Source: a virus
Lineage: Duplodnaviria; Caudoviricetes
Virus record (IMG/VR): IMGVR_UViG_3300032213_001151
Span: 1 to 60,484 of that record
Direction: 5' to 3' (one strand)
DNA length: 60,484 nt
The notes beneath the pieces were generated by a model. The model ran no database searches. It was not told where the DNA came from and saw only the letters and a list, made by a program, of their open reading frames with translations. Within the stretch, counting starts at the first letter, position 1. Every line of letters begins with the position of its first letter. Shown here piece by piece: positions 5,575-59,822 of the stretch. The position numbers and the translations under genes were made by a program.

Positions 5575-5587
5575 ATAACTTTGCATC

Positions 5588-5761
5588 ATGGCTAAGGCAA
5601 GTAAGTTTGAAAAACTGAGCAACAAGATTGCAGAGAAGCAAGGTATATCAAAGAAAGCAGCAAATGCTATAACTGCTTCCATTGGTCGTAAGAAATACGG
5701 GAACGCTGCCTTCCAAAAAATGGCAGCCAAAGGAAAAGCAAAATCAAAAAACAAAAAATAA
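5588..5761 (+). CDS. Small basic protein (57 aa), not in ORF track
   Basis: MAKASKFEKL...ASIGRKKYGNAAFQKMAAKGK; ATG 4 nt after TAACTTTG (5576-5583). Confidence 0.75.
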   Translation: MAKASKFEKLSNKIAEKQGISKKAANAITASIGRKKYGNAAFQKMAAKGKAKSKNKK

Positions 5762-13384: not shown

Positions 13385-15608
13385 TCTTTACTATGTAGTT
13401 GAGGACTATATTCCTAAGAAAACAATTTCGACTAAGAACCGCAATCGTAGTTGGGTATATGGATATGACCCACAGCACGATGTTGTCGTTATATCTAAGA
13501 CAGGTCAGATTGGAGATGTTCTGAATATCAGGGGTCTTCACATAGCATTACCTGCTGCTCCGGAAAAGTGTCTTCAAAGACACACTAAAGCATCTGAGCA
13601 ATATTGGGAAAGAGAAGAACTTCCTGTTCCTTTATCCAAAATCAATTCAATCTTTCAGTGGAATGAGATGCCCAATCAGTTTAAGAATAGTTGGGTGGAC
13701 TACATTGAGGAACAGTTTGATAGAAGAGAGCAAGGGCTATGGTTCATGAACAATGGACAGCCAACATATATCACGGGAGCACACTATATGTATCTGCAGT
13801 GGTCCAAGATTGATGTAGGATACCCTGACTTCAGAGAGGCAAATAGAATACTGTACATCTTTTGGGAAGCCTGTAAAGCTGACATTCGTTCTTTCGGAAT
13901 GATATATCTTAAGATAAGGCGTTCAGGATTCTCCTTTATGTCATCATCTGAATGCGTAAACATTGCAACCCTTGCAAGAGATGCTCGCATAGGTATATTG
14001 TCTAAGACGGGAGCAGACGCTAAGAAGATGTTCACCGACAAGGTGGTCCCTATCAGTACGAACCTTCCATTCTTTTTCAAGCCTGTGCAAGATGGTATGG
14101 ATAAGCCAAAGACAGAGTTGGCATATCGTGTACCTGCTTCTAAGATTACCAAGAAGAATATGTCTGAGACATCGAATGATGAGATGGATGGCTTGGATAC
14201 CACAATCGATTGGAAGAATACAGAGGACAACTCATATGATGGTGAGAAGCTATTGTTCTTAGCACATGATGAAAGTGGGAAGTGGGTGAAGCCCGTAAAC
14301 ATCCTGAACAATTGGCGTGTTACTAAAACGTGTCTGCGTCTTGGTAGCAAGATTATTGGTAAGTGCATGATGGGTTCAACATCAAACGCATTGTCAAAGG
14401 GTGGTGACAACTTCAAGAAGATGTATGAGGACTCACGTGTATCCTCAAGAAATGCCAACGGTCAAACAAAGTCAGGTCTATACGCACTGTTCATTCCTAT
14501 GGAGTGGAACATGGAAGGCTTTATAGATAGGTATGGTATGCCTGTGCTACGTAAGCCGACTCAGCCTGTTCGTGGAGTTGACGACAATTGGATTATGAAT
14601 GGGGCTATTGACTATTGGGAAGCTGAAGTAGAATCTCTGAAGTCTGATGCAGATGCATTGAACGAATTCTATCGTCAGTTCCCAAGAACAGAGTCCCATG
14701 CTTTCAGAGATGAGAGCAAAGCTGCACTATTCAATCTAACAAAGATTTATCAGCAGATAGATTATAATGACTCGTTGATTCAAGAGCACCACATGACTCG
14801 TGGTTCTTTCCATTGGAAAGATGGGATAAAGGACTCAAAGGTTATATGGTCCCCTGACTCACGTGGCAGGTTCTTGGTGTCTTGGATACCCGGAAAGAAT
14901 TATCAAAACAGAGTTATTGACCGCAATGGAATGAAGTTTCCCGGCAATGACCACATGGGCGCATTCGGTTGTGACTCATATGACATATCAGGTGTTGTTG
15001 TTGGCAAAGGTTCCAATGGTGCATTGCATGGATTGACAGGATACCATGTTGATGAGGGACCTATAAATACTTTCTTCCTTGAATACATTGCTCGTCCACA
15101 GACTGCAGAGATATTCTTTGAAGAAGTGTTGATGGCAATAGCATTTTATGGAATGCCTATCTTGGTGGAGAACAACAAGCCAAGACTTTTGTATCATTTA
15201 AAGAATAGAGGATACAGAGGGTTCTGTCTCAATCGTCCTGACAAGCCATACACCAAGCTGTCTAAGACTGAACGTGAGCTTGGTGGTATACCAAACTCAT
15301 CAGAAGATGTTAAGCAGGCACACGCAGCAGCGATTGAGTCTTACATTGAGAAGCATATCGGTCTTGACTTAGAAGGAAAGTATAGGGACCCTGAAGAGAT
15401 GGGCACTATGCCATTCGTGCGCACATTGGAAGATTGGGCTAAATTTGACATAAACAATCGTACAATGTTTGACGCATCTATCAGTTCGGGGTTGGCAATT
15501 ATGGCAACTCAAAAACATCTGTATCAACCTGAGAAAACACAATCAAAAATTAGCATTAACTTTGCTACATATAACAATAAGGGGACTATAAGCCAAATCA
15601 ATAGATGA
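13320..15608 (+). CDS. terL: Terminase large subunit (start uncertain)
   Basis: KIRRSGFS Walker A, LAHDESGKW Walker B, GST, GCDSYD nuclease motif. Confidence 0.9.
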   Translation: MTMEMESLNQNKGLQNEGQENSLYYVVEDYIPKKTISTKNRNRSWVYGYDPQHDVVVISKTGQIGDVLNIRGLHIALPAAPEKCLQRHTKASEQYWEREELPVPLSKINSIFQWNEMPNQFKNSWVDYIEEQFDRREQGLWFMNNGQPTYITGAHYMYLQWSKIDVGYPDFREANRILYIFWEACKADIRSFGMIYLKIRRSGFSFMSSSECVNIATLARDARIGILSKTGADAKKMFTDKVVPISTNLPFFFKPVQDGMDKPKTELAYRVPASKITKKNMSETSNDEMDGLDTTIDWKNTEDNSYDGEKLLFLAHDESGKWVKPVNILNNWRVTKTCLRLGSKIIGKCMMGSTSNALSKGGDNFKKMYEDSRVSSRNANGQTKSGLYALFIPMEWNMEGFIDRYGMPVLRKPTQPVRGVDDNWIMNGAIDYWEAEVESLKSDADALNEFYRQFPRTESHAFRDESKAALFNLTKIYQQIDYNDSLIQEHHMTRGSFHWKDGIKDSKVIWSPDSRGRFLVSWIPGKNYQNRVIDRNGMKFPGNDHMGAFGCDSYDISGVVVGKGSNGALHGLTGYHVDEGPINTFFLEYIARPQTAEIFFEEVLMAIAFYGMPILVENNKPRLLYHLKNRGYRGFCLNRPDKPYTKLSKTERELGGIPNSSEDVKQAHAAAIESYIEKHIGLDLEGKYRDPEEMGTMPFVRTLEDWAKFDINNRTMFDASISSGLAIMATQKHLYQPEKTQSKISINFATYNNKGTISQINR
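13568..13583. repeat. 16-bp palindrome site 4 (GTGTCTTCAAAGACAC)
   Basis: Inside terL, read as CLQRH. Confidence 0.95.
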
Positions 15609-20654: not shown

Positions 20655-20671
20655 TCGTAGAAAACTAAATT

Positions 20672-20703
20672 GGGGAGTGTCTTCAAAGACACTCCCCTAT
20701 TTT
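20672..20703 (+). terminator. Terminator hairpin built on palindrome site 5 (20677-20692)
   Basis: GGGGA-GTGTCTTCAAAGACAC-TCCCC then TATTTT. Confidence 0.85.
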
Positions 20704-30607: not shown

Positions 30608-31018
30608 ATGGTATTCAGAATTGAGCCAATAAAAGAAACCGATTACGATGACTTTCTCGTAGGATGGTGGGAATCATGGGGGTGGGAGCCACCACACAGA
30701 GATTTCCTTCCTGATAATGGGACGGGTGGAGTTTGTGTCTTTGAAGACACTACTCCTATTTGTGCGGGATTTCTTTATACCACCAACAGTGGTGTAGCTT
30801 GGGTCGATTGGGTAGTGTCAAGTAAAGAGTACAGAAAGAAGCCACAACGCCAACAGGCAATTGGCTTACTTGTTGAGACTCTTACAAACATTGCAAAGAG
30901 AACCGGACATAAATACACTTATGCCCTGATAAAGCATAGAGGTCTTATTGAGACATATAAATCTCTTGGCTACATCGAGGGTGATAAGTACACAACAGAA
31001 ATGATAAAAGTATTTTAA
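30608..31018 (+). CDS. GNAT-fold acetyltransferase-like protein
   Basis: VVSSKEYRKK...YKSLGY pattern; TATCTTTG at 30594-30601. Confidence 0.7.
   Translation: MVFRIEPIKETDYDDFLVGWWESWGWEPPHRDFLPDNGTGGVCVFEDTTPICAGFLYTTNSGVAWVDWVVSSKEYRKKPQRQQAIGLLVETLTNIAKRTGHKYTYALIKHRGLIETYKSLGYIEGDKYTTEMIKVF
30735..30750. repeat. 16-bp palindrome site 6 (GTGTCTTTGAAGACAC)
   Basis: Inside CDS, read as VFEDT. Confidence 0.95.
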
Positions 31019-33867: not shown

Positions 33868-36800
33868 ATGGATGAATTGAAGAAGCTGTATGATGGTCTT
33901 GTAGAAGATGGAAGTTATACGAAGACTTTCGAGGAATTTCAAAAACAATTCCAAGACGCATCATATCGTGATAGACTATACAATGGTCTTGTGACGGATG
34001 GGCTGTATACAAAATCAAAAGATGAATTTCTTAGAAAGTATGCGGTTGGTCCATCTAAGTCAATCATCGAACCTGTAAAAAAAAAAGAGACTCCGGCTCC
34101 CATTTCAGGGTCGGAATTCTTATCGGGAATTGGTTCATCGGAATCATCAGACACAGAAGCGTATAAGTTTAATCCTGCAGCTAAGCCTGCAGCTAAGCCC
34201 CCTGTAACACCTGCAGAGGATTTCATTTCATCAAGAGCACCTAAGCCTACTAAGGATTATGTGTATACACCTACCATTACTCTTCCTGAAGGATATGTCC
34301 CGGCTCCTGAAACTCCTGAAGTAGTTGCACGTGATAATACACGTATCGTTGCTACTGATTTTGGTGCACCACAAGCTTTAGAAAAGCATGAGGCTTTTAT
34401 TGCTGAGACAAATAAACTCAAAGAGCAAGCTAAAAAAATAGAGAGAGCAAAGGCTCAGGAAGAAGAGCAGCTTATAAAAAGCAGAAATGCTGCTGCTAAT
34501 CAAGATGCTCAGTTTCAAGAATACCTACAAGGCATAGATGCAAATCTAATTGATAAGGTAGAAGAAGATGTTGTACCTGAACTAAATAAAAAATTCAACC
34601 CATATGGCTTCCATTTTGAAGAAGCTGTAGCAGGTGGGGATGCAATGTATGTTCGTACTGCTGATGGCAAGCATGAGCTTCTGATTCCACTTGACCCATT
34701 TACCACATCTCAGGAAGTAGCTACATCTAAACAGTTGCGTGACTTCCTTACACAATATGCTCAAGGTCGTGAAGAGGTGAAGTCTGAGGACTACATAAAT
34801 AAAGCTCTTCGTGCTCAGAACATGAGAGATGTTGGTATGCGCAATGATGACGGCACATATTCAACTGTAAAGTTCACATCATTCGAAGAGAATGGTAAGT
34901 ACTTTGTGGTCCCTACATTGTTTCCGAAAGACCCCAATGCTACCTATACTACCAACAAGAGTGATTGGATAGAGCTTCCATTCGAGCAGGCTGTAGCTGA
35001 GGCACGTAAGCGTGGAGAGATATTCCAATTCGATAGCGACCAAGAGGCAAAGGGATTTGCTCAAGGAGATTGGAAAGGCATTAATGCATTTGATGTTGAA
35101 GGTCAGGCGTTCTATAAAGAAAAGGGCTTAGACTATTACGCTGAGAAAAAGAAGTACGAAAACTACACCAAGCTGCAAGATGAGCTTGACTTTCTTGATA
35201 ATATACTTGGCGGTGGTATTACACCACAACAGGATAAGATAGACAATCCTGAATACTTTGCACCGGATGGAAGAGGGCTATATACCAAAGAAGAACTTGA
35301 GCAAAAAAGAGCAGAGGTATTAAAGAAGAAAGACAGCCTTCTTGAGCAGGTATATGATATAGAGGTAATGGGCGTTGGTGATGGACCCGTTCAAAAAACG
35401 CGTGAAGACTTTGATGTAGTACTGAATAAGCGTCAGAATGAGATTGCAGGTGAAGCTATAAAGATGAATGCTGCAGCCACTGATGAATACAAAGCTTTGG
35501 ATGAGACATCTATGGCATTGTATAATGTGCCTATTGAGAAGATTGGAACTATCATCCCAAAGACTGCGAAGGATGCAGAGAACATCAAGAATCTTACTGC
35601 TCAATTGGTAAAAGTAAATGCTGCTAAAAAAGATGCAGCATTAAGATTTGAGACAGCAAAGACATACTACGATGCCAAGTGGAACAAGGCTGCAAGCTCT
35701 GAGTATGAGGAGAATTGGGCAGGATTCACAACATCAGTTGCCGATGCATGGAACAATGGTCAAGCAGCAGAGCAGATTATGCTTTTGACATTGGGTGTAA
35801 AAAATGCAGAGGATATAAAAGATAGACAAGAAGCTGCAAGAATTATAGCAGAGAATCTTCTTGATGTATCAGGCAAACAATCAAGAGCACTTACAAGACT
35901 AAACTTAGCTCGTGATGGTGAATGGTCTAAAACATTATTAGCAGACCCATTTGAGGCAACAGCAACATTTGTTGCATCAAGTCTTACTCAGATGCTTCCA
36001 TATGCATCATACATTGTCCCAAGTGCAACAGCAGCAGGAGCTGCAACGGGAGCTGTAGCAGGTTTAATGGGTGGTCCATTTGCTGAAGTAACTGTTCCGG
36101 GTGGTGCTATTGCAGGAGCTACACAAGGTTTAAGACTTGGTATGACTGCAGTTTCATTTGGTACTGAATATACCAACTCAATACTTGATGTAATGAGAGA
36201 GAAGGGTTATGACTTATTGGACCCTAAGCAAGTAGAAGCTGCTCTCTCTGATGAATCTGTATGGGCAGAAGGTAGCCAATTGGGTATATCAAGGGGCATA
36301 CCTATTGCTGTAGTAGATTATTTGTCATCAGGTCTTGCAGGTAGAGTATTCAAAACAAGCAAGCTTGCATCAATGCCCGTGAAGCTTGGTGCTATGGCTG
36401 CTGAACGTGCTGTGTTTGACCCTGCAGCAGAAGCGTTAGGCGAATATGCAGCGCAAACAGTAGCAGGTCAGGACATAAATTTTAAAGAAATTGCTTATGA
36501 GGCATTGGGTGGTTTGGGGAATAATACGTCTCATATGGCTGTCAACCTATATCGTGAGGCTCGTAATAACTCTAATGCGGATTTGGCTTATGAGTTAACA
36601 GACATCAATACTGTAGCTAATGAAAGAGTTAGTGATGAAAAAATTTCATCATGGGCTAACAATATGCATAAGCTTGGAAAGATTGATGCTGATGTGAACC
36701 AACGTATACAGGAGAACGTAGGTCTTAGAAGAGAAGCACGTGACCTTACATCAGTTGGAACCACAAGTAGATTGATTGGTGATGGCAAGAAAGTAGAAGC

Positions 36801-39800
36801 ACGTGTAATGCAATTGCTATCTGCAAGGAATGAGTTGTCTTCTACACAGAACAGAAAAGAGATAAATGGTGATAAGATACGTGCAATCAACAAAGAGATT
36901 GCAACTATCTCCGAGACCAAGAAACTTCTTCCTGATAACAAAGATGTTGCCGGTGATGGTGTAACCACTGCTGTGAATCTTGACGCAATTATTGGAACAG
37001 AAAGGCAAGGTGTATCACTGTATAAGATAGGTGGTAAGACATTCACCCGTGAACAATTCTTGAGTGAATTGGACAAAATGAAAAACAGAAGGCTTCTTCG
37101 TGCTCGTGTGGATATAAAGAACGATGAGGAAGCTATAAAGATTTACAATAATAAATTAAACAATGCCATTCAAAAGCAAAGCCCAAGTGCGATTTCTATT
37201 CAGTCAGAAACCGGAGTTAGCAAAACGGTGGAGGAAGGAAAACCCCAAACAGAACTTGAAGTCACTACCGAAGAAACTCAAGTCACAGTCCCAAAAGAAG
37301 AAGTAGCAAAAGCAGAAGAAGATTTAGTGTCTTCAAAGACACGGCTTGATGAGCTTGCTGATGCTATACCACAGCGTATTGACTACACTGAGGATGACCT
37401 AACAAACTTTGATGCATTAGAGCAGCAGAAAGCTGATGGTGTTATAACCGCATTGGCTGAGAAAGTTGCTGAAGGGACCAAGCTATCAACTACTGAGAAG
37501 CAGGTGTATAATGCGAACAAAGAAAAGGTTGATGGCGTATCCCAATTGGTTGCAGAGAAAACTTCAATCGAGGAAGAGGTTGCTGACCTTGAGGCTATGC
37601 TAAAGCCAAGAGCAGAGTTCCGTGCTGAAGAAAGAGTTGTTCCTGCTAAGATTGAAAATGCTATAACTGAAGATGGAGAGGTTGATTTCGAAGCAGAAGA
37701 CCAAGTCCGTAAAATTGCAAATGAAAGGAACATCGGTATTACAAGAGACCGTGAGATTGCTTATGTGGCACGTGATGAACAAGGCAATGTAGTCGGTGGT
37801 GCTTTTACTTCATATGACAATCAGACAGGAAAATATACTTTTGATGTAGTTGTAACCAAAGAAGCTGAGGGAAAAGGCATAGGCAGCAAGCTATTGGATG
37901 CTGTTCAAAATATCCCTTCAGATATAGCTGAAATGAATCCCGATGCTACTGTAGAGGTTGATGTCGTAAACCCACAGATGCAGCGTATGTTGTCTAAAAG
38001 AGGGTTTGAAGTTTCTGAAAAAATAGGAGAGGAACGTGTACTTATGGTTCCCGGAAAGAAATCAAAGACAGAGTTCCGTGCTGAAGAGACAACTGCAGAA
38101 GCACCTATCGATGAAGTCGAGGCAATAACTGATGCCATCAATCAGATTGTATCAGGTAATGTATCAACTGAGCTTGCACCTGAATCTACTGAAGGGACCG
38201 TTGATGTTACTGACCTTAGTAAAAGAACAGGTCAAGCTGTACCAACTGTTAGCTTTAAAATTGTAGAAGGTGTTCCGGTTATCTTCACCATCTCTGACCA
38301 ACTTACCACAGGAGAGATTGTAAATCCACAAACAGGAAGAGCTATAGGTAACTTGATGGGTGGTATAGGATTCAACTTCATGAATCAAAATGCTGCTTGG
38401 GCATATACCACTGAGAAGAAAGCATCAGAATCCTTAAAAAAAGCCAAAAAAGTTTACAAAGAGAATAAGCAAACAATAGAGGAGTTTTGGAAAAACAATC
38501 CCGAATACAATGGTCTTGTTCCAATGATGGTTGTGAAGATGGGAGAAGGCTCAATACTATCAAATGAAGCTACAGCCCGTGTCCTTTCAGACAACATACA
38601 AGAATTTCCTGAAGCTAATCGAAAAAGAGCATTAGCTGTTCTTCAGAAAGAACTTACTAATGAGATAAAGTCTCTTACTAAAAGAGCAGATGCTGCAAAA
38701 AGCGTACTTACAAAAAGGAACTATCAAAAAGAAGCAAGTGGGTATCAGAATATTCTTGACCTTATAGCCAAGAACAATATTCAAACGATTGAGCAATTGC
38801 TTGCTCCTGAAGTTTTCACTCAGATAGAGAACCTTAATGCACGTAAGGATATTGTGAATATGATTGGCTATGGCAAACCTAATCTTCCTCGTGAGAAGAA
38901 GGCAATGTCAAAGCCAACCAAGAACTCATTGGTTGCTCGTGCTATCATTGGCATACCGGCTAATCAAGAGGTGAAAGACATTAATCCAAACAAGAGATAT
39001 GAGCTTTTAAACTTAGGAGAAGTAACCAATACGATTACTGAGTCAACAATTGCCGACATATCTAATCGCAGTATCGTGAGCATAGTGGGTGTAGATGTAT
39101 TGAATCCTCGTATTTTGAATACAGAGAATGGTGATTTCAACCATCCAAACTATCAGTATGGATTGGCAGGAAAGTCAATAGGTATTCTACAGGAGCCAAT
39201 TTCAATCGTGAAAGCATACCCTGAAGCGTATAATCTTGCGCTGAAAGGTCTAATAAAAGAAGAATCAAAATTTGTAAAACCAATAAAAGATGGCAAAAAA
39301 ATTGTTAAGCCCGGCAACAGACTCTTCAATCAGTCTATCCCGGAAGCTTCGGAAATTGCGGATAGATATTATGAAAGAACCTATGGGCGAAAGCGTCCTC
39401 GGTACTATGGCTCAAGGTCAATCGACAAAGCAAGAGCCAAAAGAATAGCGGATTCATTCGCTAAGATGGCAGACAATCCGACTGCCCCTGATGTGAAAAA
39501 AGCTTATGAGGCTATGGCACGAGAAACCCTTGAGCAGTATAAATATATGCTTGATGCGGGTTATGTTGTTGAGATAAACAACAATGAGCCATATGGCAAT
39601 TCACGTGAGATGGTTGATGACTTGCGTAATAACAAGCGCATGAAAATCTTCTCTACTGAATCAGGGTTTGGAGATGAAAAGATTACACCTGAACAACGAG
39701 AAAAGAATGTACTACTTCGTGAATCAGGATTCTACGATATTAACGGTGAGACATTGTTGGTTAATGATGTATTCCGTGCTGTCCATGATTTCTTTGGTCA

Positions 39801-42800
39801 TTCTGAATTAGGTAATTCTTTTGGTGCAATAGGAGAAGAGAATGCTTGGAATGTACACGCACGTATGTATAGCCCATTGGCACGACAAGCAATGACTACT
39901 GAGACACGTGGTCAAAACTCATATGTTAACTTCTCAGGAGTCAATGAGAGAGTTGATGCTATGCGTCAAGAAGCTGCTGTGTTGAGAGACCAAGGTAAAA
40001 TAAAAGAAGCAGAGGCTATTGTCAATAAGATATATGAAGAAATATCTTTTGCAGAGCAGAAGCAAGGTATTCTTCCAAAAGAATTTTCTGATGTTGACCT
40101 TAATGATACAGGAGACAAAGAGTTTCAACCTGCATCTGTTGAGTCAATACTAACAAAAGCTGTTGGTGTTCAGAATGGATTAACACAAGGCGAGTTCATT
40201 GCTGCTGTAGCTGAGGGAGATATATCAAATGCAACAAAACTTGCAAACTTCCTGAGCCTTTCATTCCCAAGTGTAACTGTTTCTACAGATAAGGTTTCGT
40301 TTAACAATGTGATGTCTCAGGTTGGAACTGAGGCGTATATGGTTGGGGACCAAATCATCTATGGTGTAACTGTTGATGGTGACATATACATCAATCCTGA
40401 TGTGCACAATACAGAGTCATCACTATTCAATACCACTATCCATGAGTTTGGACACGTATGGACTGATTATCTTCAGACATCAAAGAAGGGTAAGCAGTTG
40501 TATGAACGTGGCGTACAGTTGGTTGAGGAAGGAATAGCAAATGATGCCAAGGTAAAAGAGATATTCGATGCTCAGATGAAGAAGTATCCGGGAGACCGGG
40601 CACGAGCTATCAATGAGACGATGGCTATTCTTATTGGCAACAAAGGTGAGGTGATTACCAATGCAGCAATCAAATCAAAGTTCAAGGAATGGTTGCTTGG
40701 AATGTGGAGATATGTTAAGGAAACATTCAAGATGTCAAAAGACTTGTCTGTTGAAGAGATTCAGAATCTTACCCTTGACCAATTCATAGGAACAGCATTG
40801 GCTGATATATTCAGTGGAGAGGAAATAAAACTTTCTGAAGCTCAGCAAAAGCAACTGAAGAATCCTGATGCCATGTTCAGTAGCACACAGTCTATGCAGT
40901 CGATTATCCAACAGGCGAGAGCTAATGGATTCTCTGATGCTGCCATCAAGCAAGTGTTGTTGAATCGTGGATTTAAAGCATCTGATATAAACAATGCTCT
41001 TGTTATTCCCATAGATGTAGATACAAATCTTCCAAGAGAGTTTGCAGATATTGACGGTGGTGTACAGAAAGGGCTTCAGCTATTCAATGATGTGCGCATT
41101 GAATTGCAGAGGTTTGCTCATATGGGACCTCGTGGTGGTATTCGTAAAGAGGTAACAAAAACAATGGCTCAGATTCGTGAGAAGGCTATAGAGCTATTGA
41201 AATCTCATCCGATATATCAAGCACAGTCTGATACCGTTCAGATGGAATTGATAAGCGCATTTGACAGAACCCTTGGAACTGCAGCAAATGCTAATGTTAC
41301 CCGTCAGATAACAGCAATAAGAAACAACTTGCGTCAGCGCAAGATTGGAGCAAGAGAATTACAGCAGGCTAAGATTGCGGTAAAGAACATGATACGTTCT
41401 GTTCTTCCTAAGTCTGATACATATTCTCAGGCTCAGATAAATAGGCTTATCTCTATCATCGCTAATTCTACAGAGGATACCATCCTTGCTGATACTGACA
41501 AGGTGATGAAGATAGTTGAGCAGCAGAGGGCAAAGATGAAGACATCCGTTCTTAAACAGATGTTGGAGTTAGTTAATAAAAAAGCCAAGGCTGCTATGAC
41601 TACCACCGGTAAGCGTAGAAGCAAAGGTCTCGACCCTGAAGGTCAGGCATTCTTTGCTCAAGTGAAACCAATCCTAAGAGCAGTCATCAATAATGACATT
41701 GAGTTCATGATTAAGTTGGCTGATGAATTGGCAAAGGCTGATGCTGATGGTTCAATCAATGATGCTCTTATAAAGCAGAATCGTGGAGAACAGTTGACTG
41801 TTCAAGAACAAGCATTGCTAAATAAGGCATATGCGTTTGATACGTTTGGTGACTTGATGAGCATGGAATTAGAGGATGTACAGCAATTGCTTGACGAACT
41901 CGTAGATGCTCGTGCAGAATCAATCAAGAGACTGAATACACGTAGAGAAGTACGTGCATTAAAGTATGCAGCATTGAATGCAGAGGCTTCTGCTCAGGTA
42001 TCTGAGTTGAACCCTGAGTTATTTGTCGAAGAGATTGATGCAAACGGAAACGTAACTGTTAGACCAAAGACCCGTAATGAACTTGTACAAGACCGTGCTG
42101 CTATCCGAAAAGCTTTTCAAGGCGGTAAGATATGGTCAGGGTTTAAACAGTTGGTAGCTCGTTGGGACTATACTACTATCACAGGCATAAAAGACTTCAT
42201 GCGTAAGCGCATCCTTCACTTGGGTTCATTGATGAATCTATTTGATAACGATGCAAAAGGCATGGCATTTTTTAGGGACAATATCTATAGACCTCTTAAT
42301 AGAATGGATGAGAAGTCTAAGCTTGGGTATTTCCTTGAGATGCAGAACTTAGACTCTATTGCTAACAGTATCCCCGGAATAACAAAAGGGTACAAGCAAA
42401 TCCGTAATATGCTTCAGACGGGTATCCATGAGTTCACTATCAATGGCAAGACTGATATATATAATGCAGACAAACTGCTAAGAATATATGCATTGTCTCT
42501 CAACGATGTTCAGCGTGAGAAGCTCAGAAAGATGGGTTGGGATGATGCTCAGATACAGAAGATTAAAGACATCGTTGGTCCTGAGCCGATAGCTTTTGCT
42601 GAGAAGTTGGTTGACTATTTTAGCAATGATTACTATGAATCAGTAAACAATGTATACTCAAATGTAAATGATGTAAACCTTGGGTATGTACCTAACTACT
42701 TCCCAACTATTACTCAGGCTCAGAAAGTAGGCTCAAAGCTTTTAGAAGATGGAGACTTTAATGGAATCTTCAATGCTGAGACAGCTCCTGCACTGAAAGA

Positions 42801-44430
42801 ACGTACTGATGTATTGGGTGAAATTGAATTGAACTATGATTTCTCAGATGTAGTCGAGAGTCATTTCGTTACAATGGAGAAGTACAAAGCATATGCAGCA
42901 GGTGTTAAAGAGCTTAATGCTATATTCCAAAATCCTGCATTCAATGTTCTTCTTGAAGAGTCAGGGCTGAAGTCAGTTGTAAAGCGTTCAGTAAACTTTG
43001 CGATTACGCCAAATGCAGGACAGCAAGAAGAGCAAACCGCACTTGGTAAACTGATGACTAAGTTCACAGGGTTTGCCCTTGCGTTTAAAGCCATTCAGAT
43101 TGTAAAGCAAGCAACTTCTTTCATCAACGCATATGAGGATTACAGCTACTTCCCTGCTGACTCTAAGCTACCGGGGATTGTAAAGGGACCTGTTGACTTA
43201 ATGATGTTCATGGTTGATAGCGCAAAAGTTATTGCCACTCTTCCAAAGCAAATTCGCAAAGCATATGGTATGTCTGCTAACGTAAGAGACCGTATGCTAA
43301 AAGGTATTGAGGGGGATGTATATGGTCTTGAGTCAGGCTCAAGCGTATTCTCTTCTATAGATAAGCGAACAGATATATGGGCACGTGCAGTACGTGCGTT
43401 TAAGACGGGAGCTGCGGGACCAACTGTGCTTGGTGACATACTCGGTGTTATGGGATACATGGTTAACTATAACCGTAACATTGCAAATGGCATGAGTCCT
43501 GATGCTGCATTAGAAGCGTTCAACAACTACAACGCAACAGCACAAAGCCGAAGGGGTACAGAGAAGTCATCCATTCAGCAGAACAGTTCTGAGTTGGCAC
43601 GTGCATTCACAATGTTCGGAAGCACAACATTCCTACAGATAAATAAAGTTCTCGAAGCACAGACAAATATATTCCGTGCATTGAAGGAAGGCAAGATGCC
43701 AAATGCAAAAGACATTCGTGCTTTCGCTATTAACCTTGGTCTCACCAACGCATTGTTCGTTGGCACTGCAAACATTGCTAAGTTCATTAAGGGTGATGAT
43801 GATGACCGTGAAGAAGCATTGAGACAAATGAAGAGGGCGTTGGTTGGTCTTAACCTAATTGAGTCTATACCTTTAGTTGGAGCAGCAGTTGAGACAGCTC
43901 TTGCTCACATTGAAGGAGAGAAGAAGAGAGGTGGAGATGCTGTTGTAAATCCATATATGCAGGTATACAATAAGATTCGCAAAGCATCAGAGGATGGTAT
44001 TGGATTCAAATCATTACAGCCAATAGCTGAGATAGTTATAGGTGCTCAGCTTGACCCATTCATAGGTTTGTATAATGGTGTTGCAGATGGGTTTGATGAA
44101 GAGGCAGTATATGACCTTCTCGGTATCAGCAAATCATATCGTCCAACAGAGGAGAAAGACACCAAGTCAAGTGCTCCAAAGGATATGACCAAGGAAGATA
44201 TGAAGCGATACTTCCCTGAGATGTACGAGCAAATGTATGGTCCCGGCTCTCCACTATATGATTATGAGCAGGAGATGAGAGACATGGAGAAGATGGAAAG
44301 AGAGCAGCTACAGCAGGAGAAAGACTTGATATATGGCTACGATGAAGATGCATCCAAATCAGATGGCACTGTATGGAGCAAGAAGAAGTCAACCAATAAG
44401 AAAGAATCAGGTACAGTTTGGGGTAAATAA
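33868..44430 (+). CDS. Giant multidomain (polyvalent-type) virion protein with GNAT and zincin-like motifs
   Basis: 3520 aa; EGKGIGSKLL GNAT motif A, FRAVHDFFGH, IHEFGH; TAACTTTG at 33856-33863. Confidence 0.8.
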   Translation: MDELKKLYDGLVEDGSYTKTFEEFQKQFQDASYRDRLYNGLVTDGLYTKSKDEFLRKYAVGPSKSIIEPVKKKETPAPISGSEFLSGIGSSESSDTEAYKFNPAAKPAAKPPVTPAEDFISSRAPKPTKDYVYTPTITLPEGYVPAPETPEVVARDNTRIVATDFGAPQALEKHEAFIAETNKLKEQAKKIERAKAQEEEQLIKSRNAAANQDAQFQEYLQGIDANLIDKVEEDVVPELNKKFNPYGFHFEEAVAGGDAMYVRTADGKHELLIPLDPFTTSQEVATSKQLRDFLTQYAQGREEVKSEDYINKALRAQNMRDVGMRNDDGTYSTVKFTSFEENGKYFVVPTLFPKDPNATYTTNKSDWIELPFEQAVAEARKRGEIFQFDSDQEAKGFAQGDWKGINAFDVEGQAFYKEKGLDYYAEKKKYENYTKLQDELDFLDNILGGGITPQQDKIDNPEYFAPDGRGLYTKEELEQKRAEVLKKKDSLLEQVYDIEVMGVGDGPVQKTREDFDVVLNKRQNEIAGEAIKMNAAATDEYKALDETSMALYNVPIEKIGTIIPKTAKDAENIKNLTAQLVKVNAAKKDAALRFETAKTYYDAKWNKAASSEYEENWAGFTTSVADAWNNGQAAEQIMLLTLGVKNAEDIKDRQEAARIIAENLLDVSGKQSRALTRLNLARDGEWSKTLLADPFEATATFVASSLTQMLPYASYIVPSATAAGAATGAVAGLMGGPFAEVTVPGGAIAGATQGLRLGMTAVSFGTEYTNSILDVMREKGYDLLDPKQVEAALSDESVWAEGSQLGISRGIPIAVVDYLSSGLAGRVFKTSKLASMPVKLGAMAAERAVFDPAAEALGEYAAQTVAGQDINFKEIAYEALGGLGNNTSHMAVNLYREARNNSNADLAYELTDINTVANERVSDEKISSWANNMHKLGKIDADVNQRIQENVGLRREARDLTSVGTTSRLIGDGKKVEARVMQLLSARNELSSTQNRKEINGDKIRAINKEIATISETKKLLPDNKDVAGDGVTTAVNLDAIIGTERQGVSLYKIGGKTFTREQFLSELDKMKNRRLLRARVDIKNDEEAIKIYNNKLNNAIQKQSPSAISIQSETGVSKTVEEGKPQTELEVTTEETQVTVPKEEVAKAEEDLVSSKTRLDELADAIPQRIDYTEDDLTNFDALEQQKADGVITALAEKVAEGTKLSTTEKQVYNANKEKVDGVSQLVAEKTSIEEEVADLEAMLKPRAEFRAEERVVPAKIENAITEDGEVDFEAEDQVRKIANERNIGITRDREIAYVARDEQGNVVGGAFTSYDNQTGKYTFDVVVTKEAEGKGIGSKLLDAVQNIPSDIAEMNPDATVEVDVVNPQMQRMLSKRGFEVSEKIGEERVLMVPGKKSKTEFRAEETTAEAPIDEVEAITDAINQIVSGNVSTELAPESTEGTVDVTDLSKRTGQAVPTVSFKIVEGVPVIFTISDQLTTGEIVNPQTGRAIGNLMGGIGFNFMNQNAAWAYTTEKKASESLKKAKKVYKENKQTIEEFWKNNPEYNGLVPMMVVKMGEGSILSNEATARVLSDNIQEFPEANRKRALAVLQKELTNEIKSLTKRADAAKSVLTKRNYQKEASGYQNILDLIAKNNIQTIEQLLAPEVFTQIENLNARKDIVNMIGYGKPNLPREKKAMSKPTKNSLVARAIIGIPANQEVKDINPNKRYELLNLGEVTNTITESTIADISNRSIVSIVGVDVLNPRILNTENGDFNHPNYQYGLAGKSIGILQEPISIVKAYPEAYNLALKGLIKEESKFVKPIKDGKKIVKPGNRLFNQSIPEASEIADRYYERTYGRKRPRYYGSRSIDKARAKRIADSFAKMADNPTAPDVKKAYEAMARETLEQYKYMLDAGYVVEINNNEPYGNSREMVDDLRNNKRMKIFSTESGFGDEKITPEQREKNVLLRESGFYDINGETLLVNDVFRAVHDFFGHSELGNSFGAIGEENAWNVHARMYSPLARQAMTTETRGQNSYVNFSGVNERVDAMRQEAAVLRDQGKIKEAEAIVNKIYEEISFAEQKQGILPKEFSDVDLNDTGDKEFQPASVESILTKAVGVQNGLTQGEFIAAVAEGDISNATKLANFLSLSFPSVTVSTDKVSFNNVMSQVGTEAYMVGDQIIYGVTVDGDIYINPDVHNTESSLFNTTIHEFGHVWTDYLQTSKKGKQLYERGVQLVEEGIANDAKVKEIFDAQMKKYPGDRARAINETMAILIGNKGEVITNAAIKSKFKEWLLGMWRYVKETFKMSKDLSVEEIQNLTLDQFIGTALADIFSGEEIKLSEAQQKQLKNPDAMFSSTQSMQSIIQQARANGFSDAAIKQVLLNRGFKASDINNALVIPIDVDTNLPREFADIDGGVQKGLQLFNDVRIELQRFAHMGPRGGIRKEVTKTMAQIREKAIELLKSHPIYQAQSDTVQMELISAFDRTLGTAANANVTRQITAIRNNLRQRKIGARELQQAKIAVKNMIRSVLPKSDTYSQAQINRLISIIANSTEDTILADTDKVMKIVEQQRAKMKTSVLKQMLELVNKKAKAAMTTTGKRRSKGLDPEGQAFFAQVKPILRAVINNDIEFMIKLADELAKADADGSINDALIKQNRGEQLTVQEQALLNKAYAFDTFGDLMSMELEDVQQLLDELVDARAESIKRLNTRREVRALKYAALNAEASAQVSELNPELFVEEIDANGNVTVRPKTRNELVQDRAAIRKAFQGGKIWSGFKQLVARWDYTTITGIKDFMRKRILHLGSLMNLFDNDAKGMAFFRDNIYRPLNRMDEKSKLGYFLEMQNLDSIANSIPGITKGYKQIRNMLQTGIHEFTINGKTDIYNADKLLRIYALSLNDVQREKLRKMGWDDAQIQKIKDIVGPEPIAFAEKLVDYFSNDYYESVNNVYSNVNDVNLGYVPNYFPTITQAQKVGSKLLEDGDFNGIFNAETAPALKERTDVLGEIELNYDFSDVVESHFVTMEKYKAYAAGVKELNAIFQNPAFNVLLEESGLKSVVKRSVNFAITPNAGQQEEQTALGKLMTKFTGFALAFKAIQIVKQATSFINAYEDYSYFPADSKLPGIVKGPVDLMMFMVDSAKVIATLPKQIRKAYGMSANVRDRMLKGIEGDVYGLESGSSVFSSIDKRTDIWARAVRAFKTGAAGPTVLGDILGVMGYMVNYNRNIANGMSPDAALEAFNNYNATAQSRRGTEKSSIQQNSSELARAFTMFGSTTFLQINKVLEAQTNIFRALKEGKMPNAKDIRAFAINLGLTNALFVGTANIAKFIKGDDDDREEALRQMKRALVGLNLIESIPLVGAAVETALAHIEGEKKRGGDAVVNPYMQVYNKIRKASEDGIGFKSLQPIAEIVIGAQLDPFIGLYNGVADGFDEEAVYDLLGISKSYRPTEEKDTKSSAPKDMTKEDMKRYFPEMYEQMYGPGSPLYDYEQEMRDMEKMEREQLQQEKDLIYGYDEDASKSDGTVWSKKKSTNKKESGTVWGK
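37163..37306 (+). CDS. Nested +1-frame small basic protein (47 aa)
   Basis: MPFKSKAQVRFLFSQKPELAKRWRKENPKQNLKSLPKKLKSQSQKKK with an A-rich initiation region. Confidence 0.6.
   Translation: MPFKSKAQVRFLFSQKPELAKRWRKENPKQNLKSLPKKLKSQSQKKK
37327..37342. repeat. 16-bp palindrome site 7 (GTGTCTTCAAAGACAC)
   Basis: Inside the giant gene, read as VSSKT. Confidence 0.95.
37613..38087 (+). repeat. 19-bp direct repeat CAGAGTTCCGTGCTGAAGA (37613-37631; 38069-38087)
   Basis: Exact copies 456 nt apart flanking the GNAT domain. Confidence 0.85.
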
Positions 44431-44433
44431 AAA

Positions 44434-44457
44434 GTGAGTGTCTTTGAGGACACTCAC
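44434..44457. terminator. Hairpin at the convergence of both transcription units, built on palindrome site 8 (44438-44453)
   Basis: GTGA-GTGTCTTTGAGGACAC-TCAC; T-run follows on the - strand. Confidence 0.75.
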
Positions 44458-49786: not shown

Positions 49787-50095
49787 TTATTCTTGTTCAA
49801 GTATATCCAACATCTTACGCAGGCATCCAAGTTGTGCTTTTTCTTGTGAGCTAAACTCTTCAACTTCCAAAGAGAACTCATAGAACGGAGTCATCATATC
49901 TCGTCCATAGATTCTATAGGTCCAATGTGTCTCGTCATCTATGAATACAACCATGCATATCAAGCCATGATTTTTCAGTATCCAATTGAATGCTTGCTGA
50001 TACAGTGGTCTGTGGTAGTATGGTATCAATGGACCATCGTACTTCAGCAGCACGAGCCTTGCATACTCTTTCTTAGGTACAAAGTATTCATTCAT
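49787..50095 (-). CDS. Hypothetical protein
   Basis: 102 aa; PLYQQAFNW. Confidence 0.7.
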   Translation of the reverse strand: MNEYFVPKKEYARLVLLKYDGPLIPYYHRPLYQQAFNWILKNHGLICMVVFIDDETHWTYRIYGRDMMTPFYEFSLEVEEFSSQEKAQLGCLRKMLDILEQE

Positions 50096-51135
50096 TTCGG
50101 TAGGTCCCCTTTGTATGGTGCTACTTTAGAGCAGAACAATGTGCTCATATGAATTTTATTGTGTCCTATGCGCCTGATTTCAAATGGGAACTTTACCATA
50201 GTACCACTATGAAACTTCACGAAGTTGCACAGCAGCCACCCCATGTGCTCATTGTAGGCAAGGATGGTTTCACCCTCGTGTGGCATATATACAGGCTTAC
50301 TAATGTCATACTGTTGAGGCTTGTGAAACAATGATGGAGCATCATCAACGTAATTGTATCTGCCATCTTTCATGAATGCTTTGTTCTGTTCACCGATTGT
50401 GCACTTGATAGGATATAAGTCATCAGTTATAGCACGTATTGTACCTATTCCACCGAATGCAAATACCTCTTGCCCTACTTCGAATCCCATGTCACAGTTC
50501 TTGGTCCACTGTGTTGATGATTGCTTGTTGTCTTCTTTTGGTTTCATATCGTTTTGTGTTTCTTGTTTAGCTTGCCATTTAGCACCTTTTATAAAATGAT
50601 TTTTTTTATCAACCTCTACATTACCTATACCACCTAAAGCAAATGGATATAATCTTTCAGCAGCTTCTTCTAATGTTTCTTGTTTAGCTTGCACTTGTGG
50701 TATTAGGATTTTGTATTGGTTAATAATCTCATAATAGTTACCTCCTGTTATTTCATCTACATAAACTTCATTAGTTTTTTTGAAAGTATCTACTTTTTCA
50801 ATCTTAACTTCATCGCACGTTGGGTTATTGACAAACCATTCCAAGAAGCTATGACCAATACCTTGAACACCATCTTTGATTAAGTCTTGGTCTGTGGTTA
50901 GAATGATTTTCTTGCAAAAATGAAATCCATTATTATCTGTTCCAATAACTTTAGATTTATACACTTCTTTATGCTTTGTTAAATACCAATCTCCTTGTCT
51001 AATCTGTTCGTCAGAAGTAATGTAAATATGATAGCTCCTGAAGTTTTTTTGTGAAATTGGGTGATAGTGGTATTGACCACCAAATTCATACAGCACACTT
51101 AGCTTGGAAGTTATTAATAAATGTAGGTTCTTCAT
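50092..51135 (-). CDS. Hypothetical mosaic protein
   Basis: Start set at MKNLHLL; QETLEEAAE...FIKGAKWQ module; AT-rich middle. Confidence 0.7.
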   Translation of the reverse strand: MKNLHLLITSKLSVLYEFGGQYHYHPISQKNFRSYHIYITSDEQIRQGDWYLTKHKEVYKSKVIGTDNNGFHFCKKIILTTDQDLIKDGVQGIGHSFLEWFVNNPTCDEVKIEKVDTFKKTNEVYVDEITGGNYYEIINQYKILIPQVQAKQETLEEAAERLYPFALGGIGNVEVDKKNHFIKGAKWQAKQETQNDMKPKEDNKQSSTQWTKNCDMGFEVGQEVFAFGGIGTIRAITDDLYPIKCTIGEQNKAFMKDGRYNYVDDAPSLFHKPQQYDISKPVYMPHEGETILAYNEHMGWLLCNFVKFHSGTMVKFPFEIRRIGHNKIHMSTLFCSKVAPYKGDLPK

Positions 51136-51152
51136 GTTGTTGTTTGTTTCTA

Positions 51153-51331
51153 CCACCGCAACCCCGCACAAACTGAATTGTACGGGGTGGGTGGACTTGT
51201 CTTTCCAAGCTGTCACTATTTTTTTACGCTTCCTTCAGTTATTGTTTAACCGAGTTCGACCCGTAGCGTATGGGTTTGGCAACCACCGGTGCAACCTTGC
51301 CAACACTTCTGATGCTGCACTTGGTACGGTC
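51153..51331 (-). ncRNA. Candidate structured non-coding RNA
   Basis: At least six complementary pairings with G-U pairs favouring the - strand; includes GUGACAGCUUGGAAAGACAAGU. Confidence 0.6.
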
Positions 51332-51338
51332 TTGATGA

Positions 51339-51617
51339 TTATTTGGTATCGCTTATGTCTTGGTACTTCTCTATGATAATCAAGCAAGTGTCACCAACCT
51401 TCCATCTGCCATCGTATTCAAATGGTATTGAGACTTCTCTTGTATGCTTAGCTGTTTGCACCCATATCTTAGGAAGAGTTCTGTACCTTGAGCCTATATA
51501 TCCACTTTGTGTTGCTGAGATTTTACCATCGATAACTTCCATGCCAATGTACTGTAGATTGTCAGAACATGACAGCAGAAAGATTGATAGGAACAGTGTC
51601 TTCAAAGACACACTCAT
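51339..51617 (-). CDS. Putative lipoprotein (92 aa)
   Basis: MSVSLKTLFLSIFLLSC signal with lipobox-like LLSC. Confidence 0.65.
   Translation of the reverse strand: MSVSLKTLFLSIFLLSCSDNLQYIGMEVIDGKISATQSGYIGSRYRTLPKIWVQTAKHTREVSIPFEYDGRWKVGDTCLIIIEKYQDISDTK
51596..51611. repeat. 16-bp palindrome site 10 (GTGTCTTCAAAGACAC)
   Basis: First codons of the lipoprotein gene (VSLKT). Confidence 0.95.
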
Positions 51618-51618
51618 G

Positions 51619-52359
51619 TTACAAAAGCACCTCATCGATGTAGTGGTTTTCAATATCCTCTGTAGGATTCGGACCAAAGTACTTGTTCCATACCTGCAAT
51701 GCACGTTCAACCTTATCTCTACCACCCATGATGAATGGCTCTGATGGACGGAAGATACCGAGCTGCCCTGTCGCTTTGTCAATTACGTAGAACACCAATG
51801 GTTTGTTGAACAAGGTTTGGTAGATGTAACACTGCGAGTCGTAGTTGTACTTCTTAGCTGAGTACCTGAATCCATTGATGTCTGATGTTGTCTTCAGGTC
51901 AATCAATATATCTATACCATCGCTGACAATGTCTGCCTTGCCTTTGAATTTGTGACCAAGAATATCACCCACCATTGGAACCTCATACTTATTCCCATTC
52001 ATGTAGATGTCGTCATAGAACTGAATATTACCACTCATGCGCTTGGTCAATTCTTTTATGTCCTCTACCTCTTTGGTGAGCAGGCAGAACGATAGACCAT
52101 TGTCATCAAGGAAGTCCTTGTAGATTTTGGTAGTGCGAGTAGATGCATCTACACTCAGCACATCCTTTGCTTTGTCCGGCTCAAGGAGTAGCTGATGGAA
52201 TAGTCTTCCCTCAGCTAACGCCTTGTCGTCCTCACGAACTTTGCCATAGTCCTTCGGGTTGTTAAGCAGTACCCCAATGTCTGAATTGGATAGATACTTT
52301 CTGCCTTCACCACGATAGTACTCATCATCATTCTTCAGGAGTTCAATTATGTCTGACAT
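51619..52359 (-). CDS. RecE/ExoVIII-like PD-(D/E)XK exonuclease
   Basis: LSNS, GRLFH..LLEP, KGKAD, IDLKTT, Y..Q...Y. Confidence 0.85.
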   Translation of the reverse strand: MSDIIELLKNDDEYYRGEGRKYLSNSDIGVLLNNPKDYGKVREDDKALAEGRLFHQLLLEPDKAKDVLSVDASTRTTKIYKDFLDDNGLSFCLLTKEVEDIKELTKRMSGNIQFYDDIYMNGNKYEVPMVGDILGHKFKGKADIVSDGIDILIDLKTTSDINGFRYSAKKYNYDSQCYIYQTLFNKPLVFYVIDKATGQLGIFRPSEPFIMGGRDKVERALQVWNKYFGPNPTEDIENHYIDEVLL

Positions 52360-53341: not shown

Positions 53342-53530
53342 TTAGTGGATTGGTTTGTCGAGAACTTCAGGGCGCATGATAGCACCAAGTTCTTCGAATA
53401 GATTGTTGAATGTGGCAGGCTTGCCTTGGCTGACTTCGTACTCGTGTTCAGTAGTGTCTTTGAAGACACGGTAGTCTACATCATCATGAGACTCCTGCTC
53501 ACGAATAGCTATGAATAATCTTTTTGACAT
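53342..53530 (-). CDS. Hypothetical protein
   Basis: 62 aa, first gene after the promoter. Confidence 0.65.
   Translation of the reverse strand: MSKRLFIAIREQESHDDVDYRVFKDTTEHEYEVSQGKPATFNNLFEELGAIMRPEVLDKPIH
53454..53469. repeat. 16-bp palindrome site 11 (GTGTCTTTGAAGACAC)
   Basis: Inside CDS, read as VFKDT. Confidence 0.95.
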
Positions 53531-56092: not shown

Positions 56093-56136
56093 TGGCAGGC
56101 GTGGGAGGAATCGAACCCCCCAATAACCATTCGCCT
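56093..56136 (-). ncRNA. tRNA-like minihelix (44 nt) ending GCCA
   Basis: AGGCG-AATGGTTAT-TGGGGGG-TTCGATT-CCTCCCA-CGCCT-G-CCA. Confidence 0.65.
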
Positions 56137-56137
56137 T

Positions 56138-56153
56138 GTGTCTTTGAAGACAC
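56138..56153. repeat. 16-bp palindrome site 12 (GTGTCTTTGAAGACAC)
   Basis: Between the GATase-GGCT stop and the minihelix. Confidence 0.95.
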
Positions 56154-56155
56154 TG

Positions 56156-57250: not shown

Positions 57251-57272
57251 ATATTTGATTTGATTTTGGGCA

Positions 57273-57288
57273 GTGTCTTTGAAGACAC
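57273..57288. repeat. 16-bp palindrome site 13 (GTGTCTTTGAAGACAC)
   Basis: Between the tRNA-like CCA end and the GATase start. Confidence 0.95.
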
Positions 57289-57298
57289 AGAACCCGAT

Positions 57299-57372
57299 TG
57301 GCAGTCAGGGCAGGATTCGAACCTACACAATAGGGCATCGCCCATAGCGTTTACCAATTTCGCCACCTGACT
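57299..57372 (-). tRNA. Atypical tRNA-like RNA (74 nt), isotype undetermined
   Basis: AGTCAGG/CCTGACT acceptor, GCGAAATTGGTAAACGC D arm, GTAGG-TTCGAAT-CCTGC T arm, G-CCA; short aberrant anticodon region. Confidence 0.7.
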
Positions 57373-59135: not shown

Positions 59136-59141
59136 GGGGCA

Positions 59142-59157
59142 GTGTCTTTGAAGACAC
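59142..59157. repeat. 16-bp palindrome site 14 (GTGTCTTTGAAGACAC)
   Basis: Apex of a GGGGUG...UGCCCC hairpin abutting hammerhead A. Confidence 0.95.
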
Positions 59158-59183
59158 CACCCCTACTCACTACCACATGAGTA

Positions 59184-59783: not shown

Positions 59784-59791
59784 GGGGGGAA

Positions 59792-59807
59792 GTGTCCTTG
59801 AAGACAC
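59792..59807. repeat. 16-bp palindrome site 15 (GTGTCCTTGAAGACAC)
   Basis: Apex of a G/C-rich hairpin abutting hammerhead B. Confidence 0.95.
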
Positions 59808-59822
59808 CCCCACCCCCTTGGT

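Follow-up and report, generated by a model that had tools for sequence, protein, structure and literature searches.

The window analysed here, a complete virus record of 60,484 bp with 123-bp terminal repeats, carries its plausible genes on the minus strand from ~44.4 kb to the end, the sole exception being a plus-strand ORF of 132 codons that is still open at the window's end. Minus-strand genes of this region include a Sak annealing protein, a PDDEXK exonuclease and a BT4734-type primase-helicase. A 3520-codon ORF on the plus strand (33868–44430) has as its only Pfam match a GNAT acetyltransferase domain at residues ~1286–1381.

The RNA described below occupies a gap between the stop codon (51341–39) of a doubtful 67-codon gene and the ATG (51135) of a 347-codon ORF. 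We could assign no family to the 67-codon ORF (51339–51542, minus strand, ATG at 51542), in which near-relative substitutions fell 6, 2 and 6 times on codon positions 1, 2 and 3 (hand count), and thus without clear third-position excess. The 347-codon ORF (50092–51135, minus strand), directly 3′ of the RNA, has no Pfam or PADLOC family and matches one PHROG family, itself of unknown function; in the protein atlas it matched only viral hypotheticals and unnamed viral clusters, at <0.9. A search of viral and metagenome contigs confirmed no relatives of its protein. Near relatives have only about the first 45 codons in common with the window, homology to the gene stopping near 51000.

We compared the region with the three closest loci (L002–L004) by blastn. 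Homology breaks at 51585 and restarts at 49788, and the spacing between the two flanks is only ~75 nt in L003 and L004 and ~245 nt in L002. Since the flanks are nearly joined in these relatives, the RNA and the 67-, 347- and 102-codon ORFs constitute one insertion, an accessory block of ~1.8 kb (49788–51585, minus strand). Five close relatives, of which two are ≥99% complete, also lacked the 206-nt element and its hairpin pattern throughout their records. Exonuclease relatives numbered 243 in viral contigs, and 80 loci were kept for comparison; blastn and nhmmer searches of these 80 with the 206 nt gave a match confined to 20–30 nt around the GGAAAGAC hairpin.

A scan around the element yielded promoter and terminator counts not above those of shuffled sequence, and it identified no recognisable promoter or canonical terminator at the element. 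Across the genome, a palindromic hairpin (GTGTCTT, a 2–4-nt centre, AAGACAC) occurs in at least 12 copies, for example at 497–522, 1464–1489, 13562–13586, 20671–20696, 30729–30754 and 44432–44457, and further at 51590–51615, 53448–53473, 56136–56154, 57267–57292, 59136–59161 and 59786–59811. Several of these lie at gene ends, such as just past the exonuclease stop and just past the 3520-codon ORF, and the hairpin is probably a bidirectional terminator or a processing hairpin of the phage. The sole tRNA of the window, on the minus strand, is placed at 57302–57372 by Rfam (44.8 bits) and at 57299–57372 by ARAGORN, which names no anticodon for it ('tRNA-???', with a two-letter anticodon). ARAGORN called no gene at the element, and no tRNA-clan Rfam match lies there.

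Fold and homologues of the RNA module

All helices named in the initial annotation are present on the minus strand of the intergenic stretch 51331–51153. They are GACCGUA/UACGGGUC (51331–25/51265–58); stem 1, GUGCAGC/GUUGCAC (51320–14/51295–89); pseudoknot stem 2, in which the loop UUGGCAA (51303–297) faces UUGCCAA (51282–76); UACGCU/AGCGUA (51270–65/51230–25); UCGGUUA/UAACUGA (51253–47/51241–35); GCUUG-GAAAGA-CAAGU (51210–195); and ACCCCGUACAA/UUGUGCGGGGU, inside a hairpin at 51194–51153. The 5′ pseudoknot is of the H type, with linkers of 10, 1 and 6 nt. On the minus strand the minimum free energy was −59.4 kcal/mol (z = −2.0), with an equal or better fold in 8 of 200 shuffles, compared with z = −0.7 and 44 of 200 for the plus strand. 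By folding energy itself the stretch is only marginally unusual; what makes it more than chance is covariation in five sequences, together with a 3′ hairpin that recurs in hundreds of unrelated contigs. The proposed strand is supported by the G–U pairs and by a C–G to U–G change in near relatives, which fit the minus strand alone.

The stretch had been described as one structured intergenic RNA of ~180 nt. Structured and intergenic it is, but not a single unit: because homology to three viral contigs (L328, L329 and L330) ends at the GAAAGA hairpin, we separate a folded module of ~137 nt (51195–51332, minus strand) from a strong hairpin that follows it (51153–51194; 17 pairs and two bulges in the minimum free energy fold, without a U tract). 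This second hairpin lies between the module and the next gene, and the terminator scan did not class it as intrinsic. The module consists of a 5′ domain with stems 1 and 2 (51276–51331), a central domain (51225–51275), an A-rich linker and a constant 3′ hairpin (51194–51215).

Homologues of the module were found in viral contigs with a gapped pattern taken from its central part. L329 has the whole module, from ~51330 to the hairpin; L328 and L330 have the 3′ two-thirds, that is, the central domain and the hairpin, and their 5′ domains differ. A looser pattern gave 16 stretches, among which only the same three were real, the other 13 being GC-rich and alike in pattern only. A covariance model (R1) built from the window and these three contigs scored its four source sequences at 95.8–105.6 bits, by construction. 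Applied to 198 viral loci, it gave 32.7 bits for L130 and 24.4 bits for L134, two more distant homologues outside the model in which the outer stem, an inner hairpin with an identical loop, the A-rich linker and the constant hairpin are all retained. The resulting subfamily, with the window, L328, L329 and L330 as members and L130 and L134 as distant ones, is recognised by the stems P1 and P2, an AACAA-type loop on P2, a CCY/RGG pairing, the A-rich linker and the constant hairpin.

The collection of homologues, a check suggested by the initial annotation, revealed covariation. In alignment A2 (five sequences), 11 of 22 pairs have changed on both sides and are still paired, a count reached in 0 of 500 shuffles; the double changes include 3 of 7 pairs in P2, 3 of 5 in P1 and 1 of 3 in CCY/RGG. 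The same alignment has 92.7% of its cells paired, as against 28–43% with the partners slid, a figure that favours pairing in that A2 was aligned to the model's structure. The central domain so defined comprises CCC/GGG (51274–72/51262–60), P1 (51269–65/51230–26), two further base pairs (51259–58/51232–31) and P2 with its AACAA loop, which is the UCGGUUA/UAACUGA helix given above. One helix of the earlier fold gives way here: in the five sequences GGG at 51262–60 pairs locally with CCC or CCU at 51274–72, so that long-range pairing of GACCGUA with UACGGGUC is no longer the preferred interpretation. By this comparison the far 5′ GACCGUA is not necessarily the partner of that GGG.

For the 5′ pseudoknot the comparison is with one homologue. 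In the 5′ domain L329 differs from the window in linkers L1, L2 and L3 and by one G–U to G–C change in stem 1, both stems staying intact. Sterically the pseudoknot is plausible, and these differences (p about 0.04, a rough estimate) are consistent with it but are not proof; with no double change among them, they favour it weakly.

Infernal cmscan against Rfam, also suggested at the outset, found no family covering the stretch. At gathering scores, Rfam 15 gave the tRNA as its only match in the whole window, and at E ≤ 10 the 601 nt from 50950 to 51550 returned only SNORD53_SNORD92 (E 3.2) and fiv_FSE (E 6.7), both irrelevant. The suggested likeness of the 3′ part to Flavo-1 and Acido-Lenti-1 motifs found no match of any score in this search of the 601 nt around the element, and hence neither these motifs nor ribozymes or riboswitches are supported. 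The remark that the 5′ pseudoknot matches no ribozyme or riboswitch held: Rfam gave no match to either class, and nothing else points to one. Other searches were similarly empty. A 701-nt query had no match in the phage GenBank collection, a 181-nt query from L206 gave nothing at E ≤ 0.01 against phages and E. coli, and a 20-mer of the pseudoknot had 0 matches in viral contigs. A 20-mer of the hairpin and its 3′ flank had three matches in metagenome contigs, all in one coding sequence and due to chance.

An Rfam tRNA starts 0–6 nt past the hairpin in L329, L330 and L130, and no gene resembling the 347-codon ORF is found there, which speaks for a module independent of that gene. These homologues bear on the idea that all 180 nt form a leader that controls the 347-codon gene by sensing a ligand or cleaving itself, as a riboswitch or ribozyme. 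The dense fold directly upstream of a gene, with a strong hairpin in between, would suit a leader, as would the stronger constraint on the module than on its flanks in near relatives (below). Yet the homologues precede tRNAs and no related gene, 5′ domains are interchangeable, Rfam offers no matching ribozyme or riboswitch even at E ≤ 10, and, as read from the sequence, the module and the downstream hairpin have no alternative pairing between them. We consider a leader of this kind extremely improbable.

Positions 51000–51700 are covered by contigs from four DNA sequencing runs of freshwater or lake origin; the runs that contain the stretch are DNA runs only, with no RNA run among them. In one near relative (X2 record 5), 51196–51332 differs from the window by one substitution and one gap, compared with 18 substitutions over 51341–51700, which amounts to 1 substitution for the module (137 nt) and 18, or ~5%, for the 360-nt upstream flank. 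Contigs of three of the four runs (X2, X3 and X6) have 239 extra letters between 51332 and 51341, a mosaic junction that coincides exactly with the module's 5′ boundary. With homology ending near 51000 on the other side, the module thus lies between two mosaic junctions.

The 51194–51153 hairpin stays paired through three substitutions of the X3/X6 lineage (G–U to A–U, C–G to U–G, and one in a bulge), the C–G to U–G change being tolerated on the minus strand only. In the constant stem of this lineage the two outer pairs have changed, one broken and one improved. Short contigs less than 90% alike, covering 51199/51220–51275, have the hairpin with a different, compensated stem. In run X6, a 101-nt contig with a depth of 174 versus 27 spans only the region of the 51194–51153 hairpin (51148–51192). 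Hence a further genome of higher abundance may carry this hairpin as well.

Distribution and context of the constant hairpin

The 3′ end of the module is the sole part of the element with wide relatives. This part, GUGACAG...GGAAAGAC, is a constant hairpin of 22 nt made up of UGACR, a 5-bp stem, a GAAAGA loop closed by G–C, and a following A. The window copy (51215–51194, with UGACA at 51215–11, the stem at 51210–06/51199–95 and the loop at 51205–00) belongs to the family and agrees with the consensus at 21 of 22 positions, G–U replacing the outer G–C; the base after its stem is C, not A.

These features of the window copy weigh on the view that it has no function of its own, being the decaying relic of a tRNA-array RNA that travelled with the inserted block. 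No tRNA adjoins the window copy, and the phage's closest relatives do without the element, as would be expected of a remnant. Against decay, every helix is intact, the module of the one near-relative contig has changed far less than its flank, and the hairpin fits the consensus nearly throughout. We regard a remnant as very unlikely.

A 17-mer pattern of the hairpin has one copy in the window and matched at least 118 viral and at least 120 genome stretches. Of the 17 positions in the pattern, 15 were fixed and the other two could each be either of two letters, and the apparent invariance of loop and stem in copies collected by it is therefore partly built in. Evidence independent of the pattern comes from the downstream strand of the stem, the A that follows it and the unconserved flanks. 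Among the matches listed, the stem is completed in 118 of 122 viral and 66 of 121 bacterial-genome matches, and it is completed in all nine matches of the exonuclease loci; we estimate chance completion at ~6%. By the genome figure, roughly half of the genome matches listed are chance. Stem-completing matches, among those listed, carry the labels Flavobacterium, Riemerella, Sphingobacterium, Providencia, Proteus, Yersinia, Acinetobacter, Gilliamella, Snodgrassella, Clostridia, Treponema and an Oscillatoriales cyanobacterium, among others. In E. coli only 2 of 5426 complete genomes have a plausible copy.

An ungapped profile of 155 non-redundant copies (among the matches listed) carried information at ~22 positions only. 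The commonest stems among the matches listed were GCUC/GAGC (73 copies) and GCUU/AAGC (39 copies). Wobble stems, GCTC/GGGC in 16 copies, GCTC/GAGT in 8 and GCTT/AGGC in 5, pair on this strand only, and L329, L328 and Ralstonia phage Adzire have quite different, compensated stems. By eye, we recognised the hairpin in four deposited records. Three belong to cultured phages with DNA genomes, namely Vibrio phage 1.012.O, Ralstonia phage Adzire, with three copies in one 540-nt gap, and Bacillus phage 035JT001. In the fourth, a copy with a completed stem lies in the 3′ untranslated region of the single-stranded RNA phage Esthiorhiza.2_44 (L322, 601–622), 33 nt past the replicase stop; this could reflect use at the RNA level or a chimeric assembly end. 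L162 carries the same sequence as this copy.

The hairpin is largely intergenic, with 140 of 164 non-redundant copies among the matches listed outside ORFs of at least 90 codons, and the median ORF-free gap around these 164 extends 406 nt upstream and 249 nt downstream. Neighbouring ORFs, again among the matches listed, are mostly co-directional with it (86 versus 28 opposed upstream, 99 versus 26 downstream), and they are typical early, recombination or head genes. No protein travels with the hairpin: the largest cluster of neighbours covers 13 loci of the 194 copies listed. L114 is the only other locus with both the hairpin (9968–9984, minus strand) and a relative of the 347-codon protein (5232–5666, minus strand; 38% over 152 residues), the two lying 4.3 kb apart on the same strand.

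Near-identity across phyla, sporadic occurrence, a position at mosaic junctions, and a TG start with a CA end might suggest that the 22-mer acts as DNA, as a recombination, nicking or priming site or as the footprint left by a tiny mobile element, the surrounding folds being incidental. We find this highly improbable. Wobble variants of the stem pair on one strand only, differing stems are compensated, the orientation of the hairpin is tied to that of neighbouring genes, and the adjoining central domain covaries as RNA; no recombinase, nuclease or other protein family co-travels with it among the matches listed. Readings of the 22-mer as a sigma-70, sigma-54, ECF or T7-like promoter were rejected by hand because tRNA 5′ ends follow it by 3–7 nt, no −10 element stands at the right spacing and a genome has one copy.

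Among the matches listed, a tRNA 5′ end lies 3–12 nt past the hairpin in 21 of 194 copies, a second hairpin with a T run follows within 90 nt downstream in 17 of 127, and a T run stands after the stem of the constant hairpin itself in 22 of 127. Control windows on the same strand contained a hairpin and T run in 2, 1 and 2 of 127 cases, and the same downstream stretch read on the opposite strand in 7 of 127. The terminator-like sites mostly begin 17–24 nt past the constant hairpin. Tandem copies spaced 19–78 nt apart occur in L089, L266, L304 and L232. In L089, a viral contig of 322 kb, the array (4140–4520, minus strand) has about five tandem 78-nt units that each open with the constant hairpin, then an intrinsic terminator and a hydrophobic ORF of ~44 codons, a layout like that of RNA-antitoxin arrays.

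Some copies sit within long untranslated stretches. In Bacillus phage 035JT001 the hairpin lies ~250 nt into a non-coding unit of ~850 nt, bounded by a sigma-A-like promoter (by eye) and a terminator-like hairpin with a T run. The copy of an E. coli prophage is found past a cI-like gene and its terminator, ~350 nt into an untranslated stretch of ~0.9 kb ahead of the next genes. Non-coding units of ~0.85–1 kb with the hairpin are found at 1736–2625 of L323 (035JT001), 2600–3585 of L345 (the E. coli prophage) and 1960–2950 of L320 (1.012.O), and Rfam recognises no family in them besides tRNAs. In L087 a Proteo-phage-1 RNA (337–415, minus strand; 73 bits) precedes the constant hairpin and a terminator by ~95 nt, and all three may be on one transcript. 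Among 29 loci with the constant hairpin, no Rfam family overlaps the hairpin itself.

This context is the ground for the main competing explanation, in which the constant hairpin is a cis-acting transcription signal resembling the nut and put antitermination sites: as part of the nascent RNA, it would make RNA polymerase resist terminators or Rho ahead, in tRNA arrays and long leaders, and in the window it would let transcription pass the 51194–51153 hairpin into the 347-codon gene. The enrichment of terminator-like sites downstream among the matches listed (17 of 127 versus 1–2 of 127 in same-strand controls), the co-directional genes that follow and the placement in untranslated RNA, where Rho threatens, all agree with such a signal. 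The position in the E. coli prophage matches the place of nutL in lambdoid phages, and direct contact with conserved parts of RNA polymerase would fit constancy across phyla. Other observations fit poorly. The tandem copies have no obvious use, an RNase P cut 3–7 nt behind the hairpin would sever its link to the polymerase, and a terminator is pointless if every transcript reaching it carries the signal, no regulator being seen. One copy stands in the 3′ untranslated region of a single-stranded RNA phage record, and the window's downstream hairpin lacks a U tract. On balance we consider a cis-acting signal rather unlikely.

Proposed role and comparison with known systems

The comparisons show an element conserved as RNA, specific to one strand, modular, widely distributed in its hairpin and dispensable. 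The explanation we prefer, at a probability of roughly 0.5, is an accessory small RNA that a freshwater tailed phage encodes on the minus strand and that ends in a constant recognition hairpin. It would be released as a separate RNA and act in trans on a binding partner. Its parts are a swappable 5′ pseudoknot domain, the conserved, irregular central hairpin, the A-rich linker and the constant 22 nt. Where the module directly precedes a tRNA, as in its relatives, an RNase P cut at the 5′ end of that tRNA would make the constant hairpin the 3′ terminus of the upstream product; elsewhere, a terminator or the hairpin's own U run past it again puts the hairpin near the 3′ end. The 3′ end would accordingly be set by RNase P in tRNA-linked copies and by termination in others. 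Such placement is not universal, since the 035JT001 and E. coli prophage copies sit inside long non-coding units. In the window no tRNA is next to the RNA, which stands 60 nt before a gene in the manner of a leader. The constant hairpin may act as a handle, recognised by its sequence, for some factor that widely differing hosts have in common or that is distributed among them, and the variable body would supply whatever is specific.

These results correct the annotation of the gap, which contains an RNA gene-like module within a 1.8-kb accessory block and no leader of a known class. Freshwater phages and the prophages of enterobacteria, Firmicutes, Bacteroidota and cyanobacteria all have the 22-nt hairpin in near-constant form. 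Constant yet dispensable, and patchy like an accessory gene, it points to a common, transferable and so far undescribed interaction.

A more specific role for the hairpin, which we think quite unlikely, would be that of a counter-measure or hijacking device universal to phages, working as a mimicry decoy that combines the 23S A2058–A2062 loop with the adjacent helix-93 strand, or of a minimal, protein-free antiterminator that reprograms RNA polymerase. As a decoy it would target a ribosome-directed factor, for example a defence toxin or an rRNA-modifying enzyme. Either role, if true, would explain why 22 nt stay unchanged in phages of many bacterial phyla.

The resemblance behind the decoy idea is that the loop and closing pair, GGAAAGAC, are identical to E. 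coli 23S rRNA 2056–2063, and the preceding GACAGCUCGG differs at one position from 2599–2608. We take the first stretch to be the central loop of domain V, with A2058 as the macrolide and Erm site, and the second to be the 3′ strand of helix 93, both flanking helix 73. The likeness was found post hoc, and 1179 of 20000 shuffled 8-mers also occur in 23S rRNA; the 206-nt element has ~20 other stretches of 8–11 nt in common with a 4.2-kb rrn segment (16S 3′ end to dkgB). Unlike the rRNA, the element holds GAAAGA in a closed hairpin loop, with a different topology, and a third of the hairpin copies among the matches listed have G where A2602 would fall. The joint chance is perhaps 1 in 1000, by rough estimate. 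We treat the likeness as a lead only.

Among known RNAs, Flavo-1 and Acido-Lenti-1 motifs have no verifiable likeness to the element. GOLLD and ROOL, reported as orphan phage RNAs beside tRNA genes (PMC12286853), are likewise structured RNAs of phage non-coding regions, often near tRNAs; they differ in being several hundred nucleotides long and represented in Rfam, and the element matches neither. Literal-string searches of papers and preprints with six 16–17-nt versions of the constant hairpin gave no occurrence, and word searches of the literature found no description of it. Absent from Rfam 15, it may be among the 8495 candidate structured RNAs of an IMG/VR survey (PMC10690425).

With the nut (boxB) and put sites the constant hairpin shares a 5-bp stem, a purine-rich loop of the GA type, a probable place in nascent phage RNA upstream of terminators, and co-directional genes. 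The lambda nut and HK022 put sites are lineage-specific and are not known to be constant across phyla. The constant hairpin differs from both in having no identified N-like protein and no visible boxA-like partner, and in its tandem copies and copies that abut tRNAs.

The nearest working analogue, though not a relative, is the abiF motif or RCd22 antitoxin RNA (RF03085; bioRxiv 10.1101/2025.04.15.648962). That preprint describes the motif as a short conserved hairpin, sometimes in tandem, in a phage or prophage non-coding RNA; a terminator follows, and the RNA acts by direct binding to a protein. The abiF motifs are given there as 33–35 nt long, whereas the constant hairpin has 22 nt and a different loop; no Abi_2 or other defence gene adjoins the constant hairpin, and it has no Rfam match. 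The window in particular has no Rfam match to abiF or type III toxin–antitoxin RNA, a single copy of the hairpin, and neighbouring ORFs without PADLOC or Pfam family. Conserved RNA elements common to phages of unrelated hosts are rare, and each kind that is understood, such as tRNAs, RNA antitoxins and antitermination sites, has shown a way in which phages deal with a piece of host machinery.
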